This document shows, in pieces, positions 1 to 51,079 of a stretch of DNA of 64,000 nucleotides. The translations under genes and the position numbers were made by a program. This stretch comes from Blasia pusilla (lineage: Eukaryota). The stretch spans positions 6,138,001 through 6,202,000 of the forward strand of contig CM114271.1 in NCBI GenBank assembly GCA_050084515.1, written 5' to 3'. Within the stretch, counting starts at the first letter, position 1; each line of letters begins with the position of its first letter. The notes under the pieces are model-generated. The model was not told the origin of the DNA, searched no databases, and worked only from the letters and a program-made list of their open reading frames with translations.

Positions 1-329
1 GCACTACTGTACTCTACCATCCTCCCACATGCGGAGAATATGTGTTCCCTCCAATCAATACCTCTTAGCACGTTGAAGAACACGGTCTCGCTCCTTGGCA
101 CTCACTATGCCTGGCACCCTACTGGTCCGTAGGAACTCCAACACTTACGCATCATCATGAATATCACGCTGATCCGTACCACCATCTCCAACCTTAGGAT
201 CTAAAGGTGGCCATCTACCCTCGACTAGAGTAAGATATCATGTGGTCCTCCATACTAGAGTCCACCCTAACCAACATAAAAGGCGGATGCATGCCAACCT
301 GGCACCATCTCCTCATCAACCTCGCCATG

Positions 330-1590: not shown

Positions 1591-2069
1591 TCAGGTCCCT
1601 CTCCATATCACTATATCGGTAGGGACGACGGAAGATTGGCGTATCACTAGCCAAATCAATCCGTATACCGGGTCCAACCTAAAACCCAACTCCTTCATGC
1701 TAAAGGCAAAACAACTCCTATAAGCACGTAGGAACCTGTGTCAGCGTCGTTTCTCACCTCACCTAAGCTTGGGCCCAAGTAATGGCTCCCAAGTCTCTCC
1801 CTTTGGCATACTAGAGGGAGAGGACGATGCCATTGGTCGCTACACAACCCCCTCACAAGATGATACACCCTTAGCTACACCATCATCGAGCAAATAACTC
1901 CTCCACCAAAGATGAGCAACCAACTCCACATGCCCAACCATTACATCCCATTTACTCCAAGGATGCAAAATACTACTCTCCTTGCCCTGACCGATGCCTC
2001 TACCGTCCCGGTAGCCATCGAGCTCATTACAGGGGTGGAAGACCCTGACATAGTCCAAGTCGACGCCGC

Positions 2070-2990
2070 TCGGCCATACCAAGACTCAAAATCCAAGTCA
2101 AACAATTCAGGTCCATGGCCTGACCCAACACATGACGCCGTGAAGCCTCGTAAATAGAAGCAACCGCCACGCTGAAGAGTAAATCCCATCGCACGCTCTC
2201 TCTCATCGCCGTTAGGCTCCACCAATCGCCGCACATGAGAATCCCATACAAGCCCGGACCACCTTCCTGTAGGCATGTGACGCGGGAAAACTCACAAATG
2301 TGGATAGTGCCATCCTAGGTCTGGCCCACACGATTCACCAACGCCATGGGTGACCGATCAATAACCCTCACCACTTGAGAAAGTCGCCCAAGATTCAAGA
2401 TACTATCCACGGTAAGGCGAGGATCGCCAGACCGCATCATATGCTCGACGTAGAACCTCCCCTAGGCAACAAGTTTGTCCACCACAAGCGTGGACGATGT
2501 GCACGTGAGCCAACTTCTTCGGCACGCATCCAACAACACCGCTAGTCCAATCCAAGACCGCACCTCATGAACACTCGCCATCATCCGGGTCCGAGTGTCA
2601 CCCAACAATGGAACATTCTCCGAATGTAAGCTAGAGCACGTGCTCGATGAACTGAAGATGTCGTAACACCCGTAACATCTCCCAAAACAATCGAGACCTA
2701 GGGTCATGTAATCCCTCACCACGACCAAAGACGTGTATGACCCACGACATGGCCATCCCTGCAATCACCAAATCCACAGGACCAACCCTCTCAAGGTCCT
2801 GCACCCCAACAATGCAATGTGTGATGGTAAAGCACTGGTACCCACGAATAGCGATGGCGGCAACAACTCGGATATCTCCGCATCAATCGACCAATATGTC
2901 GGGATGAGACTCTCTAGGCGTCTCATCTCGCTCCCACATACACGTATCTCCAAGACAGAATACCGCCTGCAACATCGCCGCCAAACCTGG
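2070..2990 (-). pseudogene. DNA cytosine-5 methyltransferase domain of copy 1 (motif I deleted, frameshifted)
   Basis: Frame-hopping translation of the minus strand gives DLERVGPVDLVIAGWPC (motif IV), GEGLHDPRSRLFWEM, ENVPLLGDT (motif VI), EPNGDERERAMGF (motif IX) and RRHVLGQAMDLNCLTWIL (motif X). Confidence 0.85.
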
Positions 2991-3959
2991 TCTATAAGAC
3001 GTCTCGATCCAATAATCCATATGAAAAACCCATCGGTACAATATCGCTCCTCCAACTAGTACATCATACGACTCGGCTGATGTGACTACGCAGATACTCC
3101 CAACCGGGAGCTATCGTCGCATGATCCTGGTCTCAAATCAGACAGAAAACTTCCCGTGTCATGAATTGAGACCTATCATTGGCTCCTCCAAGTGATGTTT
3201 GAATCGGAATGGGCAAGGCTCAAGCTCGACCTCCGAATACCCAAACCAATACATGCCGCCTTTCCCAACATCAAAGGTGGGCACCGAGTCTAACAAGACT
3301 CTATCTGGTCTATACACTGTCATGTAGGACTCACCAATCGGAAGATCCCCTCCGGTTGTCCAACATACATACACCAGGTGTAAGCCTCTCACGATTAATG
3401 GTGGCCGGTGGTAATGCATCCATCTTCGCCGCCTTTGCGCTAAGTAGCACGGGTACTCAATGCTACTCTCGACATAGAGGGTCGCTCCACCGCAACATCC
3501 TCATCCACCTCAACACGTGTAGCAAGAATAACACCCCACGTTCACACAATGTGGTCGCTAGCTGAAATCTGAAGCTAAGTCAACTCCTAAAGCCATCGCT
3601 CGTGGCAAAACGATGGGGATCCCAACACCGAAGTTGCCATCCGCATCATCTTGCCTTTGGATGCCGCATCCGTGTCTACTACACGCGATGTAGATGCCTC
3701 GATCCCCCTTTGTAGGCTCAATAGGCTCGCGAGGAACCATGGATGGAGTCCTAAGCACCTCAGACAAGAAGAATGACTGGGAAGCCTAGCTCGCCTCCCG
3801 GCCTCACCCCTCTGTGGGTCCAACTCACAAAGTAGCACCACGTGGCTCTGACGCTCGAGTGGCTCCTCTCGTAACTGCAGCTGATGCCTCAACCTAAGCT
3901 GCACTCGCCATATAAGAGAGATCATCCCCTCCATAAGAGGTTGAAGCCCCTGCTCCCGA

Positions 3960-5230
3960 ACCTGATCTATCTTTGGATACCACCATAGTAGCCAACTCTC
4001 GCTCCAATGCTCAATCCTGGCGACCATAGCGACTCTGTCGTAGTGGTAGGGGTAGCCACCGTAGGCTCTCCAACCACTCGTCCACCTCTACCACACCTAG
4101 CACCTCTACCACCTCGGCCTCTCGAAGCTACTCCATCACGGCCACGGTCTGATCTCAACTCTGGATGAAGATCAAAGCAACACTCTCGAGGATGACCTAG
4201 TCTCCCGCAATGATCACACTGAGTTGGGGCCGACTGAGGCCCATCCTCCAAATTCCGTCTCCCATCCTCTTGGGGAAAAAAATTCCTAACATGATCACCT
4301 CCACATGTCCAACATGACTGTCCTTGCTGCGGGGCTGCAAATGAAGGCAATGGTCTCTGCACAAATGTCCCTCTAGGACTTGATCGAGGTCGCGTGTACC
4401 CCCACGACTCCCCACTACTACTACCACCACCACCACTACGAGGCTGTGAGGTGGGCGGTGAACACGAAGTAGTAGTTGTATCCCCTCTTGAATGCGGATG
4501 TCACCACTCTCTCCTTCACCATGTTAAGCTCAATCTTCTCAGATAGAGCAAACACATGGGTCAATGTGGGTGAATCATCACTCATAAGAGTAGCATCACG
4601 TACTCTACGGCGCAAATCTCTGTCCAAGATCCCATACCAAAATTGACCGCTGATCCTCAGTCACACCCAGGTAATTGAAATCAAGCGTCGATACGCGCGT
4701 GTATGCCTCACGAAGACTCTCACCAGTCTTTCGCTCAAAGTCGTGAAGATTCCTCAACTTCTCCGTCTTCACTCCTTGATAGTTCTTCTTCAACCTCTTG
4801 AAGAACTGCAATCGGGCTAAACGATGGTGGGGCACTAGTACCTCCACTAGTACCCCCACTAGTACCTCCACTCCGGCTCGCACTGCACCACTCGCGTCAT
4901 TTGGGTGGCATAGTAGGAGCACTACTACCAATACCACCATGGGTGATAGACACATAGCCTGGAGACCAATATTGTCTCCATGCCTCAATCTCAACAACAT
5001 GGTCCTTCCTTAACTCATGGTAATCATCCATGGGTGGTCCTTCCAAGTCTTTGAAACAACCCCTTCCAAGCCAAGAAGGGTGTAAACAACGTGCGTTCGC
5101 AACATCTACATATCACACCACGTATCAAACTCTGTATGAAGTCCTCCAACTCAATGGTACCCATTTGCACCGAGTATTGTCGTGGGCCCTTCATGGCCCC
5201 ATATCCACCGTCCATGTCCCTAATCAATGG
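3960..5230 (-). pseudogene. gag of copy 1 with two CCHC-type zinc knuckles and an RGG tract
   Basis: CWTCGGDHVRNF and CDHCGRLGHPRECC followed by RGRGGRGARCGRGG; upstream gag-like text EKLRNLHDFERKTGESLREAYTR. Confidence 0.85.
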
Positions 5231-6895
5231 AGCCGCAACACTCGATAACAACGTAGAAGACTCGGTGTTTGGAACACCTCGTCCTCCTCTTCATCAACCG
5301 TCGGAAGTGGAAAAGGTAGCGATACCTAAATCCACTCCGTGTGAAACCACCACCATCCCGCACCACGGTCCCCAACCAGACCACCCGACTGACTCGTGAT
5401 GACCAACGCCGATGCCGCACCACCACCAAATTACCCAAGTGACGTCGATGTCGCTCTACTATTGTAGCTCTACTAGCTATGGGTGTAGGCAACCTAACCT
5501 CTCATCACCACAAGAAGACTCCCACGGTCTACTGGTCATCATTCCAGCCTCACTATCAGTAGCACACAGGAGTAACACTACTATGGAAATCAGCGTCAAC
5601 CCTAACAATGGGCGCGCAAGCAAGAAGCACAATGGAGGGGATCCAAACACAGGAAATCCAACGACAACCCTCCAATCTCAAATGGAAATCAAGGTAACAC
5701 AATCCACCAAACGTGGTGCCCTCTGAATCCACAAAACCCACCACACAATTCTAACGCAATAGCTACTCCGCCGCGGGTCGATGACGTGCTAGTCGAACTC
5801 GCAGCACCTGAAAATATCACCTGCATGGAGAGGCTACACCGTACTATGCGCTAGAGGTACATCAACCAAAAACCTGAGATGCATAAAGTGCCTAACACCT
5901 CTCCGAACAGCACCAAATGAGCTACAACGACAGACCTTTGGCATAGTTAAGAACTCAGCAGTTAAGCGTCCTCCAGGCAGAATAGCCCAAAGATGGGTGA
6001 CCAGTTATGCAAAACTCAAATCCTAAATCCTGCAAAAATTTCCTCACACCCAAGCAAGCAAGCTTGCTTGCTTGCTCCTTGCTCCTTACTCCGCCTCTCA
6101 CGCCCACTCGCCCCGAGTTGCCTCGAAGCCTCAAAACGCCGAGACATGCCCCGTTCGCCACGCTTCACGATGCTTCGCTATGGAGAGAGGTCCAACCAGG
6201 GCGCCCCCAATGGGATAGGCATCTCCAAAAATGAACGAGTCACCAACCAACCAGCCCCTCCGATCCGCTGTCCACCATAGCCAGACCTTGAGCTAGTCCG
6301 CAAAATTTCGATATGAAATTACTTCACAAATACGTGACCAAAATCAAATCTGTTTCGATCAGAATTCAATTGACCACCATAGCTATCTCCCCACAAAAAC
6401 TCAGCTACAACCGAGCTCCGTACTCCGAGCTAAAGATCAGACAAACTTGCTGTCCATACACCTCTAGAACCGCAAATCCGACAGCGCTTCCGCCAAGTTT
6501 CATGCACGCAGAAATCCGCAACGCTCCACGCACTCGAGCAGATAGCTTCACATGAGATCACAATACAAGTAGCAATAGGAACCTCTCACCCGATCTGGAT
6601 GAACTTCACAGAGCTTCCGCACTCCAAGCTCTCCACATCGTAAAACCGTCGAACACGAACAGAATCTTCAATGCTTGATAACTTCCAACTCCCTTGACGA
6701 AATCCGGCGATCTCGGTAGCGTTGGAAAGCTCTCGCAAGAAGGCGCTTCTTTCCTAACCAACCAGGTACCTGATTCACACCTCCAACATAGGCAACAAGC
6801 CGCGAACATCCACGGCTGAGTACACAATCGGCCCCTAACTGGATCCCTCTTGATCTACAATCGAAGCTACCATCGATCTACTCCAGTTCTTTGAG

Positions 6896-7261
6896 TGAAA
6901 TCCGTGAAAGACCTACTGTCATAAAACACGTTTACAATCACATACAGTCGAGCCAAACCCACTCCACGATGGGAGAATCTAGGTCGAAGCTTGCGGGAAA
7001 CACCATAGCCAAGAGCTCTACTCACTACCAAAGCTAACTCCCAACGCAACAGGCTCAACTCAAAGAACTGATTGTTCTTTGAGGGCAAGCCACCTTATAT
7101 CCTCCAACCTAAGAGCGGGCTCTCTTTGGGAAAGTCACCCCAAGTGAGTAACCCCCAACCCTATGTATGGAACCGCATCTCTACCAAGCCACTACGGTCC
7201 TACATAAGGAATGGCCTCTACCAGCACTATACTCTACGACATAATCCGTATGGTCATGACA
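6896..7261 (-). repeat. Terminal repeat A (LTR-like, ~366 bp) of copy 1
   Basis: Homologous to 25317-25684 and 33860-34225; reads TGTCATGACC...GGATTTCA on the minus strand. Confidence 0.9.
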
Positions 7262-9403: not shown

Positions 9404-9691
<288 letters not shown>

Positions 9692-9693
<2 letters not shown>

Positions 9694-25316: not shown

Positions 25317-25684
25317 TGTCATGACCATACGGATTATGTCGTAGAGTATAGTGTGCTAGTAGAGGCCATTCCTTATGAAGGACCGTAGTGGCTTTGTAGA
25401 GATGCGGTTCCATACATAGAGTTGGGGGTTACTCAGTTGGGGGTGAGTTTCCCAGTAGGGCCCGCTCTTAGGTTGGAGGATATAAAGTGGAGTGCACTCA
25501 AAGAACAATCAGTTCTTTGAGTTGAGCCTGTTGCGTTGGGAGTTAGCCTTGGTAGTGAGTAGAGCTCTTGGCTATGGTGTTTCCCGCAAGCTTCGACCTA
25601 GATTCTCCCATCGTGGAGTGGGTTTGGCTCGATTGTATGTGATTGTATACGTGTTTTATGACAGTAGGTCTTTCACGGATTTCA
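25317..25684 (+). repeat. Terminal repeat A1
   Basis: Near-identical to 33860-34225. Confidence 0.93.
25481..25521 (+). promoter_or_regulatory. Putative TATA box and transcription start inside repeat A
   Basis: TATAAA at 25481 and a pyrimidine-purine start (TC|A) at 25511, 30 nt downstream. The spacing is the same in copy 1. Confidence 0.55.
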
Positions 25685-26619
25685 CTCGTGGTAACTCGAG
25701 GTAGCTCGGGGCGAGTGGGCGTGAGAGGCGGAGTAAGGAGCAAGGAGCAAGCAAGCAAGCTTGCTTACTTGGGCGTGAGGCAATTTTTGCAGGATTTGGG
25801 ATTTGAGTTTTGCATAATTGGTCACCCATCTTTGGGCTATTCTGCCTGGAGGACGCTTAACTGCTGAGTTCTTAACTATGCCAGTGTACACACTATTGTA
25901 GCTCATTTGGTGCTATTCGGAGATGTGTTAGGCACTTTATGCATCTCAGGTTTTTGGTTGATGTACCTCTAGCGCATAGTACGGTGTAGCCTCTCCATGC
26001 AGGTGATCTTTTCAGGTGCTGCGAGTTCGACTAGTACGTCATCGACCCGCGGCGGAGTAGCTATTGCGTTAGAATTATGTGGTGGGTTTTGTGGATTCAA
26101 GGGGCACCACGTTTGGTGGATTGTGTTACCTTGATTTCCATTTGCGATTGGAGGGTTGTCGTTGGACTTCCTGTGTTTGGATCCCCTCCATCGTGCTTCT
26201 TGCTTGCGCGGCCATTGTTAGGGTTGACGCTGATTTCCAGAGTAGTGTTACTCCTGTGTGCTACCGGTAGTGAGGCTGGAGGGATGACGAGTAGACCGTG
26301 GGAGACTTCTTGTGGTGATGACCAGTTAGGTTGCCTACACCCATAGCTAGTAGAGCTAGAATAGTATAGCGACATCGACGTCACTTGGTTATTTGGTGGT
26401 GGTAATTTGGTGGTGGTGCGGCATCGGCGTTGGTCATCACGGAGCTGTCGGGTGGTCTGGTTGGGGACCGTGGTGCGGACAATGGTGGTTTCACACGGAG
26501 TGGATTTAGGTATCGGCTACTTTTTCCACTTCCGACCGTTGATGAAGAGGAGGACGAGGGTGTTCCAAACACCGAGTCTTCTACGTTGTTATCGAGTGTT
26601 GCAGCTCCATTGATTTGGG

Positions 26620-27900
26620 ACATGGACGGTGGATATGGGGCCATGAAGGGCCCACGACGATACTCGAGTCAAAGTGGGCACCATTGAGTTGGAGGACTTC
26701 ATGCGGGAGTTTGATACGTGGTGTGATATGCGGATGTTATGAACGCCACGTTGTTTACACCCTTCTTGGCTTGGAAGGGTTGTTTCAAAGACTTGGAAGG
26801 ACCACCCATGGATGATTACCATGAGTTTAGGAAAGACCATGTTCTTTGAGATTGAGGCGTGGAGACAATATTGGTCTCGGGCTATGTATCTATCACCCAT
26901 GGTGGTATTGGTAGTAGTGCTCCTACTATGCCCGGCCCGGCCCGAGCGTTGAGTGGTACAGTACGAGCCGAGTGGGGGTACGGTGGAGGTACTAGTGGGG
27001 GTACTAGTGGAGGTACTAGTGCCCCACCATCGTTCAGCCCAGTTGCAGAGTTCTTCAAGAGGTTGAAGAAGAACTATCAAGGAGTGAAGACGGAGAAGTT
27101 GGGGAATCTTCAAGACTTTGAGCGAAAAGGCGGTGAGAGTCTTCGTGAGGCATACACGCAGCGTATGCACGCTTGATTTCAGTTACCCAGGGTGTGAGTG
27201 AGGATCAGGCAGTCCAGTTTTGGTATGGGATCTTGGACAGAGATTTGCGCCGTAGGGTACGTGATGCTACTCTTATGAGTGATGATTCATCCACATTGAC
27301 CCATGTGTTTGCTCTATCTGAGAAGATTGAGCTTAACATGGTGAAGGAGAGAGTGGTGACATCCGCATTCAGTAGGGATACAACTACTACTTCTCGTGTT
27401 CAGCTGCCCACCTCACAGTCTTGTAGTAGTGGTGGTGGTAGTAGTAGTGGGAGTCGTGGGGGGTACACACGACCTCAGTCAAGTCCTAGAGGGATATTTG
27501 CACAGAGACCATTGCCTTCATTTGCTGCCCCGCAGCAAGGACTGTCATGTTGGACATGTGGAGGTGATCATGTTAGGAATTTTTGTCCCCAAGAGGATGG
27601 GAGACGGACTTTGGAGGATGGGCCTCAGTCGGCCCCAACTCAGTGTGATCATTGCGGGAGACTAGGTCATCCTTGAGAGCGTTGCTTTGATCTTCATCCA
27701 GAGTTGAGATCAGGCCGTGGCCGTGGTGGAGTAGCTCCGAGAGGCCGAGGTGGTAGAGGTGGTAGGGGTGGTAGAGGGGGACTAGTGGTTGGAGAGCCTA
27801 CGGTGGCTACCCCTACCACTACGACAGAGTCGACTATGGTCGCCGAGGATTGAGCAGATTGGAGCGAAGTTGGCTACTATGGTGGTATCCAACATAGATC
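26620..27900 (+). pseudogene. gag of copy 2 (two zinc knuckles, RGG tract; frameshifted)
   Basis: CWTCGGDHVRNFCP, CDHCGRLGHP*ERCF, then GRGRGGVAPRGRGGRGGRGGRGG. Confidence 0.85.
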
Positions 27901-28479
27901 AGTTCGGGAGCAGGGCTTCCACCTCTTATGGAGGGATGATCTCTCTTATATGGCGAGTGCAAAGACAAAAGTTAAGGCATCACAGGTGCGATTCTGAGAG
28001 GAGCCACTCGAGCGTCGAGCCACGTGGTGCTCTTGTGGAGTTGGACCCACAGAGGGGTGAGGCCGGGAGGCGTGCTAGGCTTCCCTGGGTCATTCTTGTT
28101 GTCTGAGGAGTCGAGGACTCCATCCATGGTTCCCGCAGCCTATTGAGCCGCGGTGGGGATCGAGGCATCTACATCGGCGTATAGTAGACACGGATGCAAA
28201 GCATCCAATGCGATTGTGCGGATGGCAACTTCGGTGTTGGGATCCCCATTATTTTCGCCACGGAGCGATGGCTTTAGGAGTTGACTTAGCTCTGTATTTG
28301 ATTTAGCGACCACGTTGTGTGAACGTGGGGTATTTATTGCTACACGTGTTGAGGTGGATGAGGGTGTTGCGGTGGAGCGACCCTCTATGTAAGGTGTAGC
28401 ATTGAGTACCAGTGCTACTTGGCGGCAAAGAACGGCGAAGATGGATGCATTACCGGCCCGGCCAGCCATTGATCGTGAG

Positions 28480-28900
28480 AGGCTTACACTGGTGTATGTA
28501 TGTTGGACAACCGGAGTGGGATCTTCCGATTGGTGAGCCCTACAGACAGTGTATAGACCGGATAGAGTCTTGTTAGACTCTAGTGCCCAACCTTTGATGT
28601 TGGGAAAGGCTGCATGTATTGGTTTGGGTATTCGGAGGTCAGAGCTTGAGCCTTGCCCATTCCAGATTCAAACATCACTTGGAGGAGCCAATGATAGGTC
28701 TCAATTCATGACACGGGAGAAGTTTTTCATGAGTTAAGACCAGATCATGCGATTGATAGCTCCCGGTTGGGAGTATCTGCGGTAGTCACATCGGCCGAGT
28801 CGTATGATGTACTAGTTGGAGGAGCAAAGATGTGTACCCGATGGGTTTTCAGATGGATTCTTGGGTGAGACAACGTCTTATAGACCTGGTTGGAAGTCGG
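28480..28900 (+). pseudogene. Retropepsin-type aspartic protease
   Basis: RVLLDSSAQPLMLG (D-S/T-G-like active site) and downstream YDVLVGG. Confidence 0.75.
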
Positions 28901-29289
28901 GGATGGACGTATGAGCCAAGTTCCTGTGAGATTTATTTTTGGGGCTCGACCAGGAGGGTCTTCCCCAACAATGTTAGCATCTGTGGCTGGTTTTAGTGGA
29001 GTAGTCACTTGGCCAGGAGACTTTTGGAGGGTAATGTTTTCGCTATGGATTCTCCTGCATGCATGAGGAGGTAGAGGAGGTCCCTATTTTTGCAGCAGTG
29101 GCATCCTCATCGTTGGATGTGCCACTTTGGAGTTTAGGCGGTGCACTACGGCAGAGGCGTCGCCTAGTGCAGAGAGGAGGCTTGGTGTGAGGTTATACCT
29201 CACGAGGAAGAGGAGGCCCCACGGCGGACTCCTACTTCTGGTCGATTAGGTTATCCCCTTTGGATACTACACCCATTGTATGGTAGTAT

Positions 29290-30240
29290 CCGCCGGAGGG
29301 CATTTGTCTCATTAGATCTCTTTGGTGGGATTAGCTGGTTTGGCTGCAGTGTTGCAGCCGATATTCTGTCTTGGAGATACGTGTATGTGGAGCGAGATGA
29401 GACGGCCCAGAGTCTCATCCCGACATATTGGTCGATTGATGCGGAGATATCTGAGTTGTTGTCGCCATCGGCTATTCGTGGGTACCAGCGTGTTTTTACC
29501 ATCACACATTGCATTGTTGGGCGCGGGACCTTGAGAGGTTGGTCTGTGGATTTGGTGATTCTTTGGATGGCCATGTCGGGTCATACACGTCTTTGGTCGT
29601 GGTGAGGGATTACATGACCCTAGGTCTCGATTGTTTTGGGAGATGTTACGGATGTTACGACATCTTTAGGTTCATCAGCACGTGCTCTAGCTTACATTCG
29701 AGAATGTTCCATTGTTGGGTGACACTCGGACCGGATGATGGCGAGTGTTCATGAGGTGCGGTCTTGGATTGGACCAGCGGTGTTGTTGGATGCTGGCGCG
29801 AGTTGGCTCGCGTGCACATCGCCCACGCTTGTGGTGGACAAACTTGTTGCCTAGGGAGGTTCTCGTCGAGCATATGATGCAAGGCGGGATCCTCGCTTAC
29901 ACGGTGGATAGTATCTTGATCTTTGGCGACTTTCTCAAGTGGTGAGGGTTATTGATCGGTCACCCATGGCGTGGTGAACCGTGTGGGCCAGACCTAGGAT
30001 GGGACTACCCACATTTGTGAGTTTTCCTCGTCACATGCCTACTGTGAGGAAGGTGGTCCGGGGCTTGTATGGGATTCTCATGTGCGGCAGTTGGTGGAGC
30101 CTAACGCTGATGAGAGAGCGCGTGCGATGGGATTTGCTCTTCGTGTGACGGTTGCTTCTATTTTCTGAGGCTTCACGACGTCATGTGTTGGGTCGGGCCA
30201 TGGACCTGAATTGTTTGACTTGGATTTTGAGTCTTGGTAT
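29290..30240 (+). pseudogene. DNA cytosine-5 methyltransferase domain (DNMT3-like) inside pol, frameshifted
   Basis: Motifs in canonical order: DLFGGIS (29315, I), YVYVERDE (II), VDLVI-GWPC (29546-29576, IV), GEGLHDPRSRLFWEM (V), ENVP (29700, VI), LLDAxRVGSRAHRPRLWWTNL (VII-VIII, ~29790-29846), EPNADERARAMGF (IX), RRHVLGRAMD (X). Confidence 0.9.
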
Positions 30241-30689
30241 GGCCGAGCTGCGTCGACTTCGGACTATGTCTGTGGGTCTTCCACCCCTTGTAATGAGCTC
30301 GATGGCTACCGGGACGGTAGAGGCATCGGCTGGGGGCGAGGAGAGTAGTATTTTGCATCCTTGGAGTAAATGGGATGTAATGGGTGGACATGTGGAGTTG
30401 GTTGCTCATCTTTGGTGGAGGAGTTATTTGCTCGGATGATGGTGTAGCTAAGGGTGTACCATCTTGTGAGGGGGTTGCGTAGTGACCAATGGCATAAATC
30501 CTCTCCCTCTAGTGTGCAAGTGGAGGAGACTTGGGAGCCATTACTTGGGCCCAAGCTTACGGGAGGTGAGAAATGACGCTTGACATAGTTCCTACGTGCT
30601 TATAGGAGTTGTTTTGCCTTTAGCATGAAGGAGTTGGGTTTTCTGGTTGGACCCGGTATACGGATTGATTTGGCTAGTGATACGCCAAT

Positions 30690-31960
30690 CTTCCGTCGTC
30701 CCTACCGATATAGTGATATGGAGAGGGACCTGATTGAGTAGGACGTTGGACCTTTTGGAGGCTGGATTAGTGGAGTTGTCGCATGGAGAGTATGCATCGC
30801 CCATCTGTCATGCTGCTAAAAGGATATGCATGGCAACTACACGGATAGGCGGATGTGTGGAGATTACCGCCCTATCAATCGGCAAACCAAGTCCGATATG
30901 TATGCCATGCCTACACGAGAGATCTTTGATGTGGTGGGGACAGGCAAAGATTTTCAGTTTTTGATCTTGGCGGGATACCATCAATTGCCGATTCGGGAGA
31001 GTGACAAGGCCAAGACAAAGCATTTTCGGTGTCAACTCTCATGGCAAGGATTGTTTGTACCGGTGGAAATTCTTACCCTTTGGGTTGAAGAATGCACTGC
31101 CGAGTTTCAAAGAGTGATGGGCGGGATCCTAGCAGGGTTGGATTTTGTTCGGTGTTACATTGATGATATCTTGGTGTTCAGTAACACGGTGGAGGAGCAT
31201 CAAATACATTTGCAGATGGTGTTTGAGCGGTTGAAAGCTCATGGTCTACGTTTGCATCCAGGAAAGTGTAAGTTCTTCCATGAGGATGTTGAGTACTTGG
31301 GTCATGTGATCTATCCAGGTGGTTTGGGAGTTCAGCAAGCAAAGGTGGAGGCTATTGCACTTATTCCACGTTCGGTATATGTGAGTAGAGTTCGAGCATT
31401 CATGGGATTGGCGAACTACTATCGGAGGTATGCGAAGGGATTTAGTGCTATGGCAAAGCCTTTGAACCAATTGCTGAAATCAGATCAAGAGTGGCACTGG
31501 GGAGATGATCAGGAGAGAGCTTTTGGGGAGCTTAAGGCCCAGTTGGTGGCGGTGCCTATCTTGAGGAGACCTATCGAGGCGCCCATTTCATTACACACTC
31601 GATTGGAGTAGGTTGGGACTTGGAGCGGTGTTGACACAACATGATGATGAGCACATGGAGTTTGTGGTGGCCTATGCAAGTCGTTCGAATAATGCAAATG
31701 AGTCGCGCTATAGTTCATATGAGGGAGAGTGCTTGGCAAGAGTGTGGGTGTGGCATACTTTAGGTGTTACTTGTTTGGCACCCAGTTTACCCTTGTTACT
31801 GATCACCAACCGCTCAAGTGGTTGATGGAGTCTGACAAGCTTATAGGGAAGCTTGCACGGTGGGCTCTTATCTTACATGAGTATGACTTCCAGGTGGTAC
31901 ATAGACCTGGAGTTGCCAACCTTGATGCTGATGGGTTGAGTAGGAACCCATGTACTAGCC
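30690..31960 (+). pseudogene. Reverse transcriptase and RNase H of copy 2
   Basis: DRRMCGDYRPIN, CYIDDILVFS, GKCKFF...VEYLGH, LGAVL...VAYASR, FTLVTDHQPLKWL, ARWAL...ANLDADGLSR. Confidence 0.95.
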
Positions 31961-32339
31961 AAGAGGATACAACTGGGGCTAGATGGCATGGCGAGGTTGA
32001 TGAGGAGATGGTGCCAGGTTGGCATGCATCCGCCTTTTTATGTTGGTTAGGGATGGACTCTAGTATGGAGGACCACATGATATCTTACTCTAGTCAGAGG
32101 GTAGATGGCCAGCCTTCAGATCCTAAGGTTGGAGATGGTGGTACGGATCAGCGTGATATTCATGATGATGCGTTGGTGTTGGAGTTCCTACGGACCAGTA
32201 GGGTGCCAGGCATAGTGAGTGCCAAGGAGCGAGACCGTGTTCTTCAACGTGCTAAGAGGTATCGATTGGAGGGAACACATATTCTCTGCGTGTGGGAGGA
32301 TGGTAGAGTACGAGTAGTGCCACATTTGGCTCGAGAGAG

Positions 32340-33200
32340 GCGCATTGTGCGACATGCCCATGAGGAGTTGGGACATTTTGGGGTAAAGCGACGTATAGCT
32401 TACTCCTTGGCGATATTGGTGGCGTGGCATGCATACTCAGGTGCAGCAATTGGTGTCACGTTGTATGGTTTGTGATCGGGTGAGGGCATCATTTAATGCC
32501 CCTACACCACAATTACACCCCTTGCCTATTATGGGGTTGGGTTACCGTTGGAGTGTGGACTTTGCGGGACCGTTACCTGGTTGGTATGCGACATCATCGA
32601 TATGTGTTGGTGATGGTGGAGCACTTCTCCAAGTGGATTGAGTTGGTGGCATTACCGGACAAGGCAAGTGAGGAACGGCGTATGCGTTTGGATAGAGTGC
32701 TTAGTCATTTTGGTGCATCGGTGAAGTCTTGACCGACCAGGGTCTGAGTTTGTGGTGAGTTTGGTCTTGTGTGACAAGGCGTTGATTGATCATCGGACCA
32801 CATCTCGAGATCATCCAGAGGCGGATGGTTTGGCTGAGCGTGTGGTTCAGGACGGTGAAGAGGGCATTGCGCAAGTATGGCCTCTGAAGGCATCTTGGAG
32901 ACGGGATGTTCGGTTGCCATGGTTAGCCATGGGGTATAGGTTGATCGCCAAGCATCCTTGGCTTCCTTCTCACCTTATTTTTTGTTATATGGCGAGATCC
33001 GGACTTTTGCAAAGCAATTGTCGGGAGTCTAGTGAGGTGGTGAACCTTGATGACCTAGAGATGTGGATGAGGGTGTGTTCTCAGCGGGCGGAGCTCTTTC
33101 GGAGAGTTATGCCAACAACCTTTGAGAATCTTGCCATTGCTCAACACAGGGATACGTTGCGGTATGCAACCATTCGAGGTGGAGGTTATTGACCATCGAT
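32340..33200 (+). pseudogene. DDE integrase (HHCC plus core)
   Basis: HAHEELGHFG...CMVC (HHCC), RWSVDFAGP, VEHFSKWIE, LTDQG, TTSRDHPEADGLAER. Confidence 0.9.
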
Positions 33201-33439
33201 TCGTAGGTTCCATGTGGGGGACTATGTCTATTTGCAGCAGATTGCACCGACAACGTTGGATGTGACGGCAGGCCGCACTATTTTACGAGTGCGCGAGGTG
33301 TTAGCTTCTGGAGTTCTCTTGTTGGAGGGTCGTGATGGAGTTGTTTGGAAGGACCATGTGCGTAATTGTGCGCCATGTCATCTTCCAAATGTGGATGGTA
33401 GTGTTGACCCAAGCTTAGCCATGATACGTGCTAGCTTGA

Positions 33440-33582
33440 GGTGCATGTTGTGTGGGTCTACTGGTAACGCAGCCCGTATGTTGGTGTGTGATGGGTGTTC
33501 TAGGGGTTGGCACATGATGTGTTTGACTCCACGTTTGGATGTTGTTCCTACTGGAAGGTGGGTTTGTCTTCGATGTACTTAG
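33440..33582 (+). other. PHD finger (C4HC3) at the integrase C-terminus
   Basis: CMLCGSTGNAARMLVCDGCSRGWHMMCLTPRLDVVPTGRWVCLRC* matches canonical PHD spacing, including the W-x-C-x-x-C end. Confidence 0.92.
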
Positions 33583-33748
33583 GAGAGGTAGATGACTTGA
33601 TCTTTGCATGATATGGATTACAGATGTGCGACTAACGATGGGGCAACCTATCACCCGACCTTTTCGATTCGGGCACCCAAGAAGGTGTATAGCATGTAGT
33701 AGATGTATAGGGCTACCGGGAGTTAGAGGACCTAACCGCCGCTTGATT

Positions 33749-33758
33749 AGGGGGCGAG
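33749..33758 (+). promoter_or_regulatory. Putative polypurine tract
   Basis: AGGGGGCGAG immediately before repeat B1 (TTGTGGTACAC). Confidence 0.6.
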
Positions 33759-33857
33759 TTGTGGTACACTTGCGTTTGTGGATACTCGTCTATGTTATGT
33801 ACGTATGTGAGTATGGTATGTCGATGTATGTTGTATGACGACGTGGATTCGCACGAC
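33758..33857 (+). repeat. Repeat B1 (~100 bp)
   Basis: Near-identical to 34226-34331. Confidence 0.92.
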
Positions 33858-33859
33858 GG

Positions 33860-34225
33860 TATCATGACCATACGGATTATGTCGTAGAGTATAGTGTGCT
33901 AGTAGAGGCCATTCCTTATGTAGGACCGTAGTGGCTTTGTAGAGATGCGGTTCCATACATAGGATTGGGGGTTACTCAGTTGGGGGTGAGTTTCCCAGTA
34001 GGGCCCGCTCTTAGGTTGGAGGATATAAGGTGGAGTGCACTCAAAGAAACGATCAGTTCTTTGAGTTGAGCCTGTTATGCGTTGGGAGTTAGCCTTGGTA
34101 GTGAGTAGAGCTCTTGGCTATGGTGTTTCCAAGCCGACCTAGATTCTCCCATCGTGGAGTGGGTTTGGCTCGATTGTATGTGATTGTATACGTGTTTTAT
34201 GACAGTAGGTCTTTCACGGATTTCA
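33860..34225 (+). repeat. Repeat A2
   Basis: Near-identical to 25317-25684. Confidence 0.93.
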
Positions 34226-34331
34226 GTTGTGGTACACTTGCGTTTGTGGATACTCTCGTCTATGTTATGTACATATGTGAGTATGGTATGTCAGCGATGT
34301 ATGTTGTATGACGATGTGGATTCGCACGACA
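34226..34331 (+). repeat. Repeat B2 (right terminus of the element)
   Basis: gttgtggtacacttgcgtttgtgga...gattcgcacgaca followed by agag. Confidence 0.92.
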
Positions 34332-45090: not shown

Positions 45091-47422
45091 ATCTATATTA
45101 CTATGGGAGACGAAATTCTTGATTTGCAAACACCTCTTTGATTGACGCATACAAGGGGGGCAACAAAAGTTTTACTTGGTAATAAGAGCAACAAGATCTT
45201 TTTGCAATTTTTAATCACAATCACTCTTGTACATAGCATGATCTATACACCAGTACATACTAGGATGAAGTTTGGTATGCATAATAAAGAGAGGAGATAG
45301 ATTAGTATATATTAACAATGCCCACTAAGAGTTTGATGTCAGGATTAGGAAGATGAGATGGATTGATATATACCAGTAAGAAATATTTTCACGTGCACCA
45401 ATGTCCCTTTAATACACTTGTTTGTTGCATTGTTGTTCCATTAGAACATGTTAGTTAAGTTTTTAGAATGGCATGTGTTTTCTATTTTAAGGATAATTTA
45501 AGAAGTTTTATTCTATTTTTTCCATTTAAGGAATTAATCTAGAGGCTAGGAAAGACAAGAGACAAGATTAGACTTAAGAGATTTACTTATTTTACAATGT
45601 TCTTTCCATAATATGTAACCTTCTTTCTATCAAATTTAAAATAGACGAGACAATCACATGTAACTTAAGAATCCGCCTTATTTCCTTTCCATAATTTATG
45701 ATATAACACGTCATGTTCCTGAAGAATTATTCTAAAAAATGTTAGCTTTGTAAAAAATAAGAGATATCTCATCAATCAATTGTGAAGCTTCACTTGTTTT
45801 AGAATGTTCTTTCAAGATTAAATAATCTAATTTCATTCATCGATATGATAAAATATAGTTGGCATTATTAAGTGCTCCATTCATCGATGCTAAGCACTTA
45901 TTGATTTTTCAAGTCTTTTATAACAAATCGACAAGTATGTGTAGGGTGGCTTCAAGGAGAGCGGAGGATATCCTCAAGATGTTGAAGATGACATGTTGAT
46001 GCATGGGGTAACCTAAGAGAAAGCAAGTTTTCTCTTTGTTTTGGCTCATTTGGAGCCATATAGAGGAACGTGCTATTTCAGATAAGTTCCAAATTTGATG
46101 ATAATTGACTTTGCATTTGGGGAGTGGCCCTTGAATCCTTAATCCCCTATTGCACGTCAAAAGCCAAGGACGTAACTTATGAGCACATGTTACCATGGAG
46201 AGAGTTTGGGGAGAGGGCTCAGATGGACGAGATATACCTAAGGGAGAGACCTTTGGAACTTATTCTCTTTTTGTTGAACCTCTTGGCATGAGGCGATGGG
46301 GCTATCATCTATGGTCCTCCTTGCCTTTTGAGTAATTGAAGCCTCTCATTATGAGGGTGGATTTTGTTTGACAGTGAGATAGAGAGATGGAGATTGAGTG
46401 CTCTTGATTGGAGATATTTTGGTATATCATCGTCTTAGTGTTCAGATGCCATGAATGAGTATGGTTTCTTGTGTTTATGTGCTTGTACTTAGTTATAAAA
46501 ATGTATATTACACACTACATGTGACAAGAGAATTATCATGATTGCATCATTCCTTGGAGATGAGGTAAATAGGGATCAAGTGAGCAAGGTCACCATTTAG
46601 TTGACAAGCATTTCTTGATGGCATGGAGTGTGGCCACATTGAGACATGTCAAAGTAGGCCAAGGTAGCCACATTTTCATCCTTCTACACCATACTGATTG
46701 GATGGTGCATTCTAGAAGAGGTTGTGATAGTGTTGGACATCTTCCATGCCACTTGAAGATTCTCGAGTGGCATGGAGTATTGCATCTCTTCTAAGAAATC
46801 AAAATTCGTTTGGCATATTCTAGATATTATGTATTATGCCTATAGTATACTATAGGCAAGTCTTTGTGTTCAAGATTTATCATACAAGGAGCATAATGGG
46901 ACTGTGTGAAAAGTCCCAATTCAACGTAAAGCACAGTTCAGGCTATAATATCGTGATCTCTTACCGACATCAATCATATAGGACTACCAAAGTTTCTTGG
47001 TGAAGGGCTTCTTATTGTTGGGGATATAGGAATTAAATCAAATGGATGTCATTTACTTGGTCTTTGGAGGTTGGCCTTGTAAAGGACAGTCAAGTGCTAA
47101 GACAAGGAGAGATTGTGAGGATCTTACGATATATGTAAGAGCACAACTCTTGTTCTCCAATGAAAAATTTGGTGAATGTGCCATTTTTGGATGACTCTTG
47201 GGCACAAGTGATGACAAACTTATACTAGGTTTGTGCATGGATCGAATTGGGAGTGTTCTTGGATGTGGTAAGTATAGGTTCATGTGTATAATGTCAACAC
47301 GTCTTGTGGATGAACTTGATGCCACACAAGGCGTTGAGAAGGGCATATGTTAGAGTAGAGTGACCTTCCTAGCTGTAGATGGATTCTTTTTTTGGTTGTG
47401 GATATCGATCATAGGCAGTGAG

Positions 47423-47735
47423 CAAGGCTGCATATGGATAAAGTCCAAGTCCATGGACTTACATCCGTCTTATGGAAGGACTTTTCCATGTAGGCCTCAC
47501 CTTCCCCTTCTTTCTCATTCTCCCCACTTGCATTTGTCTTCCATATTCACCCGTTTTTTCCTCCCTCCACCTCCACTCCATCCTCCCTTATTGCCCCACT
47601 TGCCCTTGCCCTACCTTCCATCATGAACTATTTAGTGTGGTTCCCACCTTTTGCAATTCATGTCGATGGATATATCCAAACTTGTCCGTCCATGTCCGTC
47701 CTAGGGAAGGACTTGTCTATATTTGTGCAACCATG
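47423..47735 (+). mobile_element. hAT-type MITE, same family as 23706-25058
   Basis: TIRs caaggctgca / tgcaaccatg; flanks gcagtgag / gcactgag. Confidence 0.82.
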
Positions 47736-47743
47736 GCACTGAG

Positions 47744-48228
47744 CAAGGTTGCACACGGACAAAGTCCGCGTCCACGGACTTATGTCTGTCCTATGGACAA
47801 GCATGTTAGTGCAAGCTTAGGTACCCGAGGCTCACACCCTAGCCCGTATCTAAGCCCATACCCGAGCCTGCCCGGAGCCCGCATAGGACCCGCACGAGGC
47901 CCGCAAGGCGGGCTTTGGGATTGCAAATTTTGGTTTGGTGGACCATAGTTTGGTTAGCTGGACCAAAAGCTTGTCCGCTGGACCAAATTTTGCGGCCCAA
48001 ATCCGGCCTTGCAAGCCTGGTGCAGGCCTTGAGTTCGTCATGCAAGCTACGGGCGGGCCTAGAGCCCGCACCTAGCTCATCGTGCGGGCCTCGAGCCTGC
48101 CCCATGCCCCAAAGCGGCACCGCAACTGGGCTGCGGGCCATGCAACAGGTGTGGGCTCTAGGTGGGTTCGGGTGGGGGCGGGCATATCCGTCGATATATC
48201 TGTACTTGTCCGTTTCCGTGCAACCTTG
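47744..48228 (+). mobile_element. Second hAT-type MITE with a GC-rich interior and the same TIRs
   Basis: TIRs caaggttgcac / gtgcaaccttg; flanks gcactgag / gtagtgag. Confidence 0.82.
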
Positions 48229-51079
48229 GTAGTGAGGCATGATAATTGACCTCCATTCTTGATGGTCAACAAGTTTGGCATGGCACAAGTAACACTATGG
48301 ATGTGGATGAGTTTTCTTGCTTCCTATGCATACAAGGATGACAATCTTAGCTTGGTTTGCGATGATCAAGCACCGTTGTTGGTAAAACCCAATGCTTATG
48401 AGTGTGAGTGGGCTATAAGATTTCCCAAAAATGTGATGACAATATCATCATTTTTAGAGACATCTCAACGCAATGTTCTAGGTCACGTAATGCACATTAA
48501 CTTCTTGACATGGATTTTGAACTTAGGAGTAGTTGAGGAGCCTCAGATTTGGTTGAGACTCAATCAACTCTTAGGCACTTGCCTTTGCAGGTAGTACATG
48601 CAATGGCTGGGGGTGAGGCTTGAGGAGATTCGGAGTGACATCCATGAACTTCTTGGGATGTGATGTATATACATTTAGAGGTGGCAACCACTAGAATTGG
48701 CATGGTGCACGGCTCTATGCATCAAGACAAGTGCAAACTCTTCTATGATCAGATTGAGTACTTGAATCTCATAATATATCCGGATTGACTTGATATCCAA
48801 TAGAAGAATGTAGAGGTTACCTCACTTATTCCATGCCTTAGAGATTTTATTCTAGTTTGCATATTTATTGGATTGGCGAGCTTCCATTGACAAAAGGACA
48901 AGGGATTCAGTCCTCTAAACTTTCCGATAAAGGTGGATCATAAGTGGAATCGAGCATGAGAGAGCATTTCAATTTCTTGGGGCTTTATTGATGTTCATGC
49001 CTTTCTTGAAAAGACCAATTAGGGGGCGTTCTTTAGGGTACAAAATCCATAGGGATTGAAGTATGTTGGGACTTGAAGTGGTGTTCATCCAAAATAATGA
49101 TAAGGGTAGAGAGTTTATACCCTTATCATATATAACTCATATGAGGACGAGTGCTTAGTTCTTCTATGGGTTGCTGCATATTTCATGTGTTCCTAGTTTA
49201 GTAGCCCTATTAGTGTTATCAGTTATAAACAACCATTGAAATGGTTGATGGAGTTGGACAAGCTAATATGGAAACATGCTAAATAGGATCTTTTATTGTA
49301 CGAGTATGATTTTCAAGTGGTGCATGAACTTTGGAGACTTAACTATGATGCACATGGATAAAGTGGTAACCCATGCGTATCATATGCATACACATACCCA
49401 AGTTTGTGTATGCACACTCCATGCCCAAGTTAGCAAGATGGAATTAAAACTCGTTGGCTTCGCGAGATTGATAAAGAGATGGTGCTTGTATGGCACACAA
49501 CCATCGATTTGAGTTTTTTGGCCATGGAGGGCCATGTAACATTAACTTCAATGATAGGATCATATGGAAAGTCCTTAGATATGAAGTGTAGTGAGGAGAT
49601 GATATATGGCCAAGATATCGTGGAGGATGCCGATAGTCTTCGACTACATACACACTAGAAGCATAACAAGCATAATCAGTGAGAGCGGGATAAGATCCTA
49701 CGATGAGCTGGACATTTCAAATTTGAGGGGTTTGGAAAGAAGTAGAATACAAGTGATGGCTCATCCTTTACAAAGAGCAAGATTGGTGCTTTATGCCCAC
49801 AAGGAATCAAGGAGTTGGTTTGTAATTGGGTTTGAACATTGTTCGATGCAATTGCATCCACTAGCAATCATGGGTTAGGCTATTGATGGAATTCATATTT
49901 CTTACGGCCTTTACCATTGATGAAGCATCATAGTCGATATGTGTCGGTGATGGTCAAGAACTTCTAGATGTCAAAGTGATAGATTTGGTTATATTTCCAA
50001 ATAAAATAAAAGGAGAGAGAGAAGCATATACATTCCTAGATCGAGTGTTAAGTCAGTTTATGCACTCGTGGAGGTATTGACATACCAAGGTACCAAGTTT
50101 TGCGAGTTTTAGGCCTTGTATGATCTCTAATCGAGCGTTGATCAATCATTACATCACTTCTTGAGATCATCACGAGACAAATGGGCTAGCGTAGCGAGTT
50201 TTCTAGATCATAAGGAGGGGTTCGCACAAGTGTGGCTTATAGATAGGTCTCTAGAGGATTGGTACCTACCATTTCTGTGGTGGGTGATGGGTTACAATTC
50301 TAGTAGGAAAAAATTCTTGACATCCTTTTCACCTTATTTTTTGCTTATGGATAAGAGCCCAATTTAGCTGCGGCCACTCATCATGATGTTGGTGATGTAT
50401 TGAAACTTCATGATCCTTGTGTATGGATACAAGCATACTTTCAACGGACTAAGAAATTTCACAGAGTTCCGCCTATGATATTCGAGAACTTGGAAGTAAC
50501 ACAACATTGGGACACGTTGAGGTATGTGACTATTAAGGAAGGAGGCTATCAACCGATAATCTTGAGGTTTCATCAAGGATAATATCTCTACTTGTAGCAC
50601 ATGTCACCCACAACCTTGGATGTTCTAATAGAATGCACTATTTTGAGAATGCATCAGGTGATGTCATCTTATATCTTCTTGTAAGAGGGATGTGATAGTA
50701 TGATATTAAAGGACCATGCGGGTAATTATGTGTCATACCACCTTTCTAAACATTGATAAGATAGTTCACCCAAGTTTGGTAGTAGTACTTGCACGATTGC
50801 GATACATATTACGTGGATTTGCTAGAGGTGCAACCACCATGCTCGTCTATGATGAATATTGGAGAGGGTCACATAAGGTATGTGTGATGCCACCTCTTGC
50901 TAGGATTCCTGATGGACGATGGATGTGTTAGACATGTATATAGGGTAGGTATCCACTATCATTAAAACTAGCTCTCTCATGTTACCATAAGCCTCAACAC
51001 ATCATCTTCAACCTTATGAAGATATCCTCCGATCTCCTTGAAGACATCCTAATGATATTCTTCAAATTTTTGTAAAAAA

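Follow-up and report, generated by a model that had tools for sequence, protein, structure and literature searches.

Cytosine methylation is the main route by which plants silence transposons, and for that reason a transposon that carries its own de novo methyltransferase is counter-intuitive. The closest described system is KnitGypsy-Dnmt3 of the charophyte alga Klebsormidium nitens, for which the available sections of de Mendoza et al. (2018, PMC5890265) report a Dnmt3-related, unpermuted DNA methyltransferase (DNMT) in the Pol open reading frame (ORF) of a Gypsy-type element. The same sections describe it as a few-copy element whose DNMT is under purifying selection, and the legend of their Fig. 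4 assigns it a DIRS-type repeat structure combined with Gypsy domains. A 2026 preprint from the same group (10.64898/2026.05.21.726589) mentions, in the part available, 'streptophytes (Gypsy-DNMT3)' as previously described. The case for transposons of this sort has so far rested on two algal groups. The present study concerns a related element of the land plant Blasia pusilla, contained in a window of 64,000 nucleotides (the whole stretch analysed; contig CM114271.1, positions 6,138,001 to 6,202,000).

With a probability of about 0.88, positions 29293-30226 of the window are the pseudogenised DNMT3-like C5 cytosine methyltransferase (C5-MTase) of a ~9-kb Ty3/Gypsy-type element, ordered gag-protease (PR)-DNMT-reverse transcriptase (RT)-RNase H (RH)-integrase-PHD finger with split direct repeats at its ends; this element is a member of the Gypsy-DNMT3 lineage in a land-plant host, the DNMT of its intact members has been kept by selection and most likely serves the element, and the copies in the window are dead. 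Sequence comparison places the element in the lineage first described in K. nitens. A precedent for DNMT-carrying retrotransposons in charophytes had been named in an earlier, sequence-only reading of this DNA, and the available text of PMC5890265 bears it out. As far as that text describes KnitGypsy-Dnmt3, the two elements share an unpermuted DNMT within Pol, split direct repeats and purifying selection, and their RTs fall on the same side of the tree. They differ in host, a land plant as against a charophyte alga, and in sequence, with 33% identity in the DNMT (measured with a Marchantia protein as proxy) and 54% in the RT. The window element also ends its Pol with a PHD finger, a domain with no mention in the main text of PMC5890265 as available, the K. 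nitens gene model ending before that point. Finally, at least one sequenced organism contains its family in very many copies, in contrast to the few copies reported in the same text for KnitGypsy-Dnmt3, and the window copies are dead. Taken together with the Marchantia proteins and the metagenome copies, the window widens the known range of the Gypsy-DNMT3 lineage to include land plants.

The methyltransferase lies in copy A, the whole copy of the element. The sequence-only reading had named eight C5-MTase motifs in canonical order, and a script that translated the three forward frames of 29150-30300 located every one of them where it had been placed, on the + strand, in ascending order and spread over three reading frames:

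29293..30226, + strand: DNMT3-like C5 cytosine methyltransferase domain, pseudogene (motifs, Pfam, protein search and alignment to P0258)
29315, + strand: motif I, DLFGG (DLFGGIS), frame 1
29384, + strand: motif II, YVERD, frame 1
29565, + strand: motif IV, GWPC, with the catalytic PC, frame 2
29610, + strand: LHDPRSRLF, frame 2
29700, + strand: motif VI, ENV, frame 2
29814, + strand: motif VIII, AHRPRLWWTNL, frame 2
30121, + strand: motif IX, RAMGF, frame 0
30176, + strand: motif X, RRHVLGRAM, frame 1

The motifs run I-II-IV-VI-VIII-IX-X, the canonical order without permutation, and their presence at 29293-30226 is far beyond chance: the domain is real. It had been said to be hidden from the ORF track by frameshifts, and this is indeed the case. 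The methyltransferase stretch of copy A contains no long ORF, and a frame-aware alignment of its 934 bases (29293-30226) with the DNMT of P0258, the Marchantia polymorpha protein MARPO_0091s0058, runs end to end with 227 of 300 residues identical, 20 frameshifts and one in-frame stop (at 29667), a count that may include a few short in-frame indels, scored as neighbouring +1/+2 pairs. Identity to P0258 stands at 64-76 per 100 residues within the domain, compared with 55 of 97 in the linker that precedes it. The 138-residue translation of 29535-29948, read through stops, gives 108 matches at E ≤ 1e-3 (best 5.9e-23) in a set of 1.84 billion representative proteins. PF00145 scores above its cutoff of 22 bits on the close relatives P0258 (35.1), P0004 (38.6) and P0087 (58.4 bits); the single-frame pieces 29168-29605, 30043-30168 and 30149-30439 of copy A give no DNA_methylase match by Pfam. 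Motifs I and II of copy A align to LFDGIATG and ...ASE of DNMT3A. Across an alignment of 15 family sequences, conservation of at least 90% is seen at the motif IV catalytic Cys, at the Glu of ENV and at the G/H/N columns of the GSRAHRxRxxWTNL block.

Among known C5-MTases, the domain ranks closest to DNMT3. In a phmmer search of the PDB, the P0258 domain matches DNMT3A best (5.4e-8), followed by DNMT3B/3C (about 1e-6), M.HaeIII (2e-3), DNMT2 (0.25) and M.HhaI (0.34), with no DRM chain at E ≤ 1. A profile of the 15 family sequences gives a similar picture, with DNMT3A/3C/3B at 2e-20 to 1e-19, DRM at 2e-12 to 1e-9, M.HhaI at 5e-8 and DNMT2 at 1.4e-4; DNMT1 and CMT chains are absent from both searches (the profile search taken to E ≤ 0.1). 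Structurally, an AlphaFold model of the family member P0036 (mean pLDDT 74, pTM 0.72) points the same way: solely DNMT3A/B/C chains appear among its fold matches listed to rank 50 (best E 5e-16), with target-normalised TM of 0.75-0.80 on chains comprising only the catalytic domain and 0.39-0.53 on longer chains. On these PDB rankings by sequence, profile and predicted fold, the domain appears closer to DNMT3 than to DNMT1, DNMT2, CMT, DRM or the bacterial MTases, and the description of the domain as DNMT3-like and not permuted as in DRM stands.

The mammalian enzymes DNMT3A/3B/3C, its best matches in both sequence and fold, share its motif order and motif forms (LFDGIATG, PC, ENV, AHRARxFWGNL). 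Unlike them, the element domain lies inside a retrotransposon polyprotein, retains only about 20% identity and has a longer motif VIII-IX segment (314 residues against about 285). Neither a PWWP nor an ADD domain was found by Pfam in the window ORFs or in the relatives, a protease standing upstream instead; the domain is therefore a DNMT3-like catalytic domain and not a cellular DNMT3 orthologue. Plant DRM, which is related to DNMT3 and is the second-best PDB family, carries motifs I-IV at its C-terminal end, whereas the element domain is linear. Because DRM is permuted, its chains (352-357 residues long) match solely through their C-terminal part, profile positions 148-275 corresponding to chain residues 226-352. 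Two other origins were considered and set aside: a plant DRM by the linear motif order, and a bacterial-type MTase acquired by horizontal transfer by the PDB ranking.

The domain is embedded in a complete element, whose parts are as follows:

25317..34330, + strand: copy A, whole Gypsy-DNMT3 element, starting TGTCATGACC and ending GCACGAC (read from the sequence)
25317..25696, + strand: repeat A1, 5' terminal repeat (blastn of the region against itself)
27149..27676, + strand: gag-like ORF with two CCHC-like knuckles, CWTCGGDHVRNFC and CDHCGRLGH (translation)
28486..28900, + strand: aspartic protease remnant (alignment to P0258 residues about 100-259; ORF 28537-28737)
28900..29292, + strand: protease-methyltransferase linker, poorly conserved (55 of 97 residues identical to P0258 residues 301-400)
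30592..31611, + strand: reverse transcriptase (PF00078, E 2.7e-16 on ORF 30820-31611)
31565..32100, + strand: RNase H (PF17917 and PF17919, E about 1e-13 on 31565-31825; PF17917, 2.9e-12 on 31723-32475)
32399..33192, + strand: integrase, H2C2 zinc domain and DDE core, in pieces (sub-threshold Pfam matches on fragments)
33442..33576, + strand: PHD finger, the C-terminal domain of the pol product (PF00628, E 1.4e-10; C4HC3 pattern intact)
33757..33857, + strand: repeat B1, immediately 5' of A2 (blastn self-comparison of the region)
33859..34238, + strand: repeat A2 (blastn of the region against itself)
34225..34330, + strand: repeat B2, 3' end of copy A (blastn; sequence)

Copy A is flanked by a 5-bp target-site duplication, AAGAG, at 25312-25316 and 34331-34335. 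RVT_1, RT_RNaseH, Integrase_H2C2 and rve follow one another in order between terminal repeats, as in Ty3/Gypsy elements. That the MTase sits between the protease and the RT, as proposed from the letters alone, is supported by a frame-aware alignment in which copy A is collinear with P0258 from 28139 to 32002, and by P0008, a metagenome protein of 2188 residues that presents the same order in one ORF: zf-CCHC gag, PR motif, DNA_methylase (978-1226), RVT, RNaseH and integrase. Against P0266, the collinearity of the pol region of copy A extends as far as the end of the PHD finger.

The individual domains of copy A are preserved to differing degrees. The gag-like ORF has no Pfam family at E ≤ 0.01, and zf-CCHC is found upstream of PR in the relatives P0008, P0087 and P0034. 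The active-site triplet of the protease reads D-S-S (28576-28584), compared with D-S-G in the Marchantia relative; no protease family was detected by Pfam in three read-through frames of 28079-28902, and Asp_protease_2 is found at E 1.6e-4 in K. nitens P0087. The RT is 84% identical to that of P0258 over 332 columns. Two integrase fragments score below their cutoffs (PF17921, E 1.8e-5, 25.2 bits against 25.5; PF00665, E 0.0063, 17.2 bits against 32.6), and both domains are complete in relatives. The PHD finger recurs in most of the database relatives similar in RT, and is present in P0039, P0040, P0266 and P0295. It occupies the place held in chromoviruses by a pol C-terminal chromodomain. Its nearest solved structures are DPF2/DPF3 (PHD2), KMT2C/D, CHD4 (PHD2), KDM5A/B (PHD1) and ATXR5, and these PHD fingers mostly bind histone H3 tails with unmethylated K4. 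The literature searched held no relevant description of a PHD-finger integrase in long terminal repeat (LTR) elements.

The repeats of copy A are not simple LTRs. By blastn, A1 and A2 (25316-25696, 381 bp, against 33859-34238) are 95.6% identical over 385 columns with 9 gaps, and the ~100-bp B1 and B2 (33757-33857 against 34225-34330) are 93.4% identical, the start of B2 overlapping the end of A2 by ~14 nt. The resulting layout, A1...B1-A2-B2, is a split direct repeat, which we take to be of the DIRS/Ngaro/PAT-like type. The window element shares this layout with DIRS/Ngaro/PAT-like elements and differs from them in its DDE integrase with H2C2 domain, its target-site duplication and its Gypsy domain order. 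A DIRS/Ngaro order for copy A is ruled out by the integrase zinc and core domains, together with the absence of any tyrosine recombinase family in Pfam scans of its ORFs and frames. The combination of split direct repeats with a DDE integrase and a 5-bp target-site duplication is recorded here as an observation in its own right.

The nearest named relatives are two M. polymorpha proteins, MARPO_0091s0058 ('hypothetical protein', 1190 residues, protease-linker-DNMT-RT-RNase H) and Mp_2g26090 ('Reverse transcriptase'), at 76% identity in the DNMT and 82-84% in the RT. Both have the PR-linker-DNMT-RT-RNaseH order of the window element; both carry PF00145 among their precomputed domains, and Mp_2g26090 also carries RVT_1. 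The Marchantia models, from a different genome, read through as ORFs, unlike the copies in the window. With the best RT ORF from a second window copy, copy B, as query, the matches include Calypogeia fissa (80%), Mp_2g26090 (82%), MARPO_0091s0058 (71%) and K. nitens KFL_013780010 (54%). Whether the domain is in frame with pol has two answers: in the window copies it is not, and in the intact relatives P0008, P0266 and P0295 single ORFs include the DNMT. Further relatives are P0003, an annotated protein of Closterium sp. NIES-54 (DNMT-RT-RNaseH-rve), additional Closterium proteins and one Mesostigma protein. In K. nitens, GAQ93235.1 (KFL_013780020) contains zf-CCHC, Asp_protease_2 and DNA_methylase and lies on the same 7497-bp contig as KFL_013780010 (RT-RNaseH-integrase). 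Its DNMT is 33% identical to that of P0258 over 320 residues (E 2e-45), the long VIII-IX segment included.

Beyond annotated proteins, a scan of metagenome contigs with the P0258 domain yielded 12 loci (L001-L012) with the same PR-DNMT-RT order. Parts of the window also occur in sequencing runs of five organisms and, as small shares, in four air-metagenome runs. In one of all these runs, X1, the family is extremely abundant, with 47,730 matching contigs, of which 12,932 reach 99% or more similarity to the window; contigs of another, X12, a run guessed to be of RNA, cover 23 of 30 bins of the window.

A second architecture exists in the same DNMT family. Elements such as P0039, P0040, P0048 and P0107, known from metagenomes and from a 'pol' of the chlorophyte Scenedesmus sp. 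PABB004, share the DNMT family, a Gypsy RT and a PHD finger, in the order RT-RH-DNMT-INT (integrase)-PHD, with the DNMT after RNase H where the window element has it before the RT. Trees of both domains were built from the 38 fetched proteins containing both, minus the near-duplicates P0115, P0116, P0128, P0493, P0123 and P0125, plus the K. nitens pair and copy A (34 rows). The DNMT precedes the RT in 18 of the 34 rows (the window, Marchantia, five Closterium, K. nitens and metagenome ORFs) and follows RNase H in the other 16, including Scenedesmus 'pol'. In both trees, the two architectures occupy opposite sides of a single branch (SH-aLRT 93 for DNMT, 100 for RT), so that the architecture changes once per tree, compared with a mean of 11.7 changes in shuffles, none of 500 of which was as low. 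The window groups with the two Marchantia rows at SH-aLRT 100 in the DNMT tree and 99 in the RT tree. The congruence of these trees, which are quick trees without an outgroup and do not distinguish single from double capture, argues that DNMT and RT co-diverged through long co-inheritance rather than repeated capture.

The kind of element is thus already known from PMC5890265, in the sections available, while its occurrence in land plants is unreported in the literature searched. No description of Gypsy-DNMT3 in a land plant, of the PHD finger, or of MARPO_0091s0058/Mp_2g26090 was found there (supplements and subscription journals lie outside that literature), and the matching passages of PMC11982613, PMC8616336, PMC5784723 and PMC6453930 are silent on a land-plant Gypsy-DNMT3. 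The sequence-only reading, which knew of no land-plant description, is therefore right as regards published accounts and needs amending in one respect: the fusion of PF00145 with RVT_1 already stands in public M. polymorpha gene models, so that it is unreported rather than unseen.

Comparison across copies, proposed earlier as a check on the domain, reveals purifying selection on the DNMT. The ratio of nonsynonymous to synonymous divergence (dN/dS) was computed by the Nei-Gojobori method with codons aligned through P0258, terminal decay included. Between sub-lineages, the DNMT of copy A against nine metagenome loci gives dN/dS 0.24-0.32 at dS 0.65-0.80; the comparison with L001 is saturated and yields no value, and the ratios between L001 and the remaining loci are 0.19-0.24. 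When other regions of copy A are compared with three loci, RT-RH gives 0.16 (0.06 on a 76-codon piece), PR 0.17-0.26 and the linker 0.32-0.44. Constraint on the DNMT lies between that on RT-RH, which is stronger, and that on the linker, which is weaker; over the history of the family, the domain has been constrained about as much as the protease.

These observations suggest a role for the enzyme in the element itself. In intact members, the DNMT would be translated within the Pol polyprotein with its catalytic motifs kept, made as part of Gag-Pol and then possibly released by the protease and packaged, as the sequence-only reading also supposed. It most likely acts as an S-adenosylmethionine-dependent DNA C5-methyltransferase in the element's own life cycle, and its substrate may be the element cDNA or the insertion site. 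The 2018 authors proposed methylation of freshly made cDNA or chromatin effects at the insertion site (PMC5890265, sections 10 and 11, as available), and the same text reports CG methylation for dinoflagellate DIRS enzymes. The PHD finger may read a histone tail and help to choose the chromatin into which the element inserts, and thus suggests a testable targeting mechanism. Marchantia, with its genetics and methylome tools, offers a setting in which the role of the enzyme could be probed.

The window copies themselves have no function of their own, and the interest of the locus lies in the family rather than in a functional gene. Besides copy A, two further copies are present:

1..7261, - strand: copy B, a member of the same family truncated where the window begins (blastn, 91-93% identity with copy A)
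46844..50940, + strand: copy C, fragments of an old DNMT-RT-integrase-PHD element (27-45% identity in tblastn with queries including P0258 and P0254)
29358, 29495, 29564, 29795 and 29992 in copy A; 2963, 2834, 2759, 2518 and 2320 in copy B: frameshifts shared by the two copies

The claim that the element encodes its own methyltransferase accordingly holds for the presence of the domain and fails for these copies as sources of an enzyme. All three are pseudogenes: copy A has 20 frameshifts, the DNMT remnant of copy B (about 2050-2990) has 73% identity to P0258 with 16 frameshifts and no stop, and of copy C only fragments are left. Copy B also lacks ~445 bp corresponding to 28892-29336 of copy A, motif I included, with the microhomology CTGGTT(T)GG at the junction. 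In copy C, only 109 codons of the DNMT can be aligned (44% identity), and the domain is interrupted by an insertion of ~820 bp (47361-48183). Two side observations concern these copies: copy B carries 766 extra bases between its 5' repeat and the internal region (6127-6892, - strand), with no match elsewhere in the window, and part of the insertion in copy C (47634-47735) resembles 24957-25058, just upstream of copy A.

Copy B is an insertion independent of copy A, because the same TGTCATGACC start adjoins a different flank. Nevertheless, five DNMT frameshifts are common to the two copies, falling at the same reference residue (within 2) and being of the same type, near residues 400, 446, 471, 550 and 616; those at 471 and 616 were checked by eye, and no A-versus-B indel is present there in the nucleotide alignment. 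No shared frameshift was seen in RT-RNase H when the event lists were compared by eye, unscripted. The five frameshifts common to these two independent insertions suggest that the DNMT was broken before A and B inserted; in their progenitor, the methyltransferase was probably disrupted at a time when RT and RNase H were still intact. These shared frameshifts hint that loss of the domain need not end propagation, which bears on whether its benefit falls to the element or to the host.

Alternatively, many of the frameshifts could be assembly or polishing errors in a very high-copy repeat, the true copy being less broken and perhaps intact. We regard this as unlikely, although it has real points in its favour. 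Frameshifts and stops stand at 20:1 in copy A and 16:0 in copy B, compared with 0-3 frameshifts and 2-10 stops in each of the 12 metagenome loci. The two decay styles are thus opposite, frameshift-rich in the window and stop-rich in the metagenomes, which may be real biology or may reflect assembly quality in repeats. A1 and A2 differ by 9 gap columns in 385, and a family with 47,730 contigs in run X1 is of the kind that is hard to polish. In a comparison with contigs of runs X1, X2, X3 and X12, those of X2, X3 and X12 show 18-36 gap letters relative to the window over stretches of 0.5-1.1 kb and have an extra G behind 29917, beside the frameshift mapped at 29925. In run X1, however, that G is present in only 2317 of 17,920 depth units (about 13%), and most copies there therefore share the state of the window. 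Errors would also have to recur identically at five places in two independent insertions. Some 4.5 kb of host exons in the window (GTF3C1 and aldose epimerase) are free of frameshifts and their introns are clean, and no homopolymer bias is apparent, 35 of 89 small A-versus-B indels extending a homopolymer, which is roughly chance. Nor is uniform error expected to concentrate frameshifts as copy A does, at 5-7 per 100 residues in PR-linker-DNMT against 0-2 in RT-RNase H (3-4 times denser), where two apparent frameshift pairs in the RT arise artificially from a gap in the gene model used as reference.

The reading of the domain as a DNMT3-like enzyme of a selected, Gypsy-DNMT3 lineage also has to carry several results that weigh against it. 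On the 138-residue piece 29535-29948, a single-frame piece, PF00145 reaches 20.2 bits (E 4.6e-4), short of the gathering score of 22. The DNMT3-like label derives from PDB rankings and not from a rooted phylogeny, the trees being built without host DNMT3 or DRM. The K. nitens pair GAQ93235.1/KFL_013780010 is probably the published KnitGypsy-Dnmt3, an equation based on domain content and the shared contig. An open DNMT frame was found in none of the window copies and in none of the 12 metagenome loci. The DNMT dN/dS within the metagenome clade (0.5-0.8) and between copies A and B (0.53) is near neutral, as expected for dead copies. Lastly, the K. nitens domain expressed in yeast gave no detectable de novo methylation, a result that its authors call inconclusive and that comes from the only published Gypsy-DNMT3 assay (PMC5890265, section 10, as available).

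That yeast result also lends itself to a different account, in which active members keep the domain for another job: methylation of RNA (genomic RNA or primer), a non-catalytic module binding DNA or chromatin, or the damping of transposition to spare the host. The authors of the assay themselves raise RNA methylation, with reference to a LINE-borne DNMT, and host-sparing (sections 10 and 11 of the same text, as available), and the progenitor of copies A and B seemingly kept transposing or being mobilised after it had lost the DNMT. The conservation at 90% or more of the catalytic Cys, the ENV Glu and the G/H/N columns in 15 sequences nevertheless points to catalysis rather than to a scaffold. 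Moreover, the modelled fold matches DNA-bound DNMT3 catalytic domains over their full length, and not the tRNA enzyme DNMT2, whose E values were 0.25 by sequence and 1.4e-4 by profile. We therefore rate another job as improbable.

That the DNMT segment is a piece of a host DNMT3 gene, brought next to element sequence by a landing retrotransposon or by misassembly, is scarcely credible: the domain is DNMT3-like and non-seed plants do have host DNMT3 genes (PMC6453930, in the passages available), but this origin is contradicted by the position of the domain inside terminal repeats and a target-site duplication, by the like splits of the DNMT and RT trees, and by the recurrence of the PR-DNMT-RT order in three window insertions, two M. 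polymorpha proteins, 12 metagenome loci, Closterium and K. nitens proteins and intact single ORFs.

A broader and more tentative picture can be drawn, which we hold to be possible but doubtful as a whole. Gypsy-DNMT3 would be an old lineage spread across the streptophytes (Klebsormidium, Closterium and liverworts), whose sister architecture occurs in a chlorophyte. It would either have come into land plants or have survived in them, and in one of these at least it would have multiplied to a very high copy number. Its Pol would combine a PHD reader with a DNMT3-like writer, paralleling the ADD and catalytic domains of cellular DNMT3, and in the present host the methyltransferase would have been lost before the last insertions. 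If this last point is true, the DNMT would be dispensable for transposition, or at least could be supplied in trans.

Outside the element copies, the window contains two genes of the host, both with ordinary introns: aldose 1-epimerase exons at 36969-38718 (- strand) and a GTF3C1-like gene at about 53980-63331 (- strand). The best BLASTP identity of the epimerase is 62%, with liverwort, fern, lycophyte, gymnosperm and angiosperm matches at 52-62%; its tree (184 columns, over which the best identity is 64%) places it outside seed plants, without resolution among bryophytes, lycophytes, ferns and a zygnematophyte. The top matches of the GTF3C1-like gene are Selaginella (56%), Sphagnum (54%) and Diphasiastrum (54%), and the named ones among the 120 matches listed are all land plants. 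Neither gene has a near-identical database match, and a protein-atlas look-up places the host in Streptophyta. With the closest relatives of the element in Marchantia and Calypogeia, these matches point to a non-seed land plant, probably a liverwort, and to one other than M. polymorpha.

Base composition varies along the window. The coding strand of the element copies is rich in G and T, with GC skew of +0.22 to +0.29 and AT skew of -0.11 to -0.17 (1-10000 and 26000-34000), mirrored in copy B, and the observed/expected ratio of CpG is 0.71-0.91 in the copies compared with 0.43 in the GTF3C1 region. A strong skew of G over C, as in the Gypsy copies, is also present at 16-18 kb, where an open frame of 589 residues (17020-18789, + strand) has no Pfam family. 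Finally, a repeat of ~0.85 kb is found at 23716-24587 and 43802-44629 (74-85% identity, 20,086 bp apart), with inverted partial copies at 22063-22799, and is probably another transposable element.

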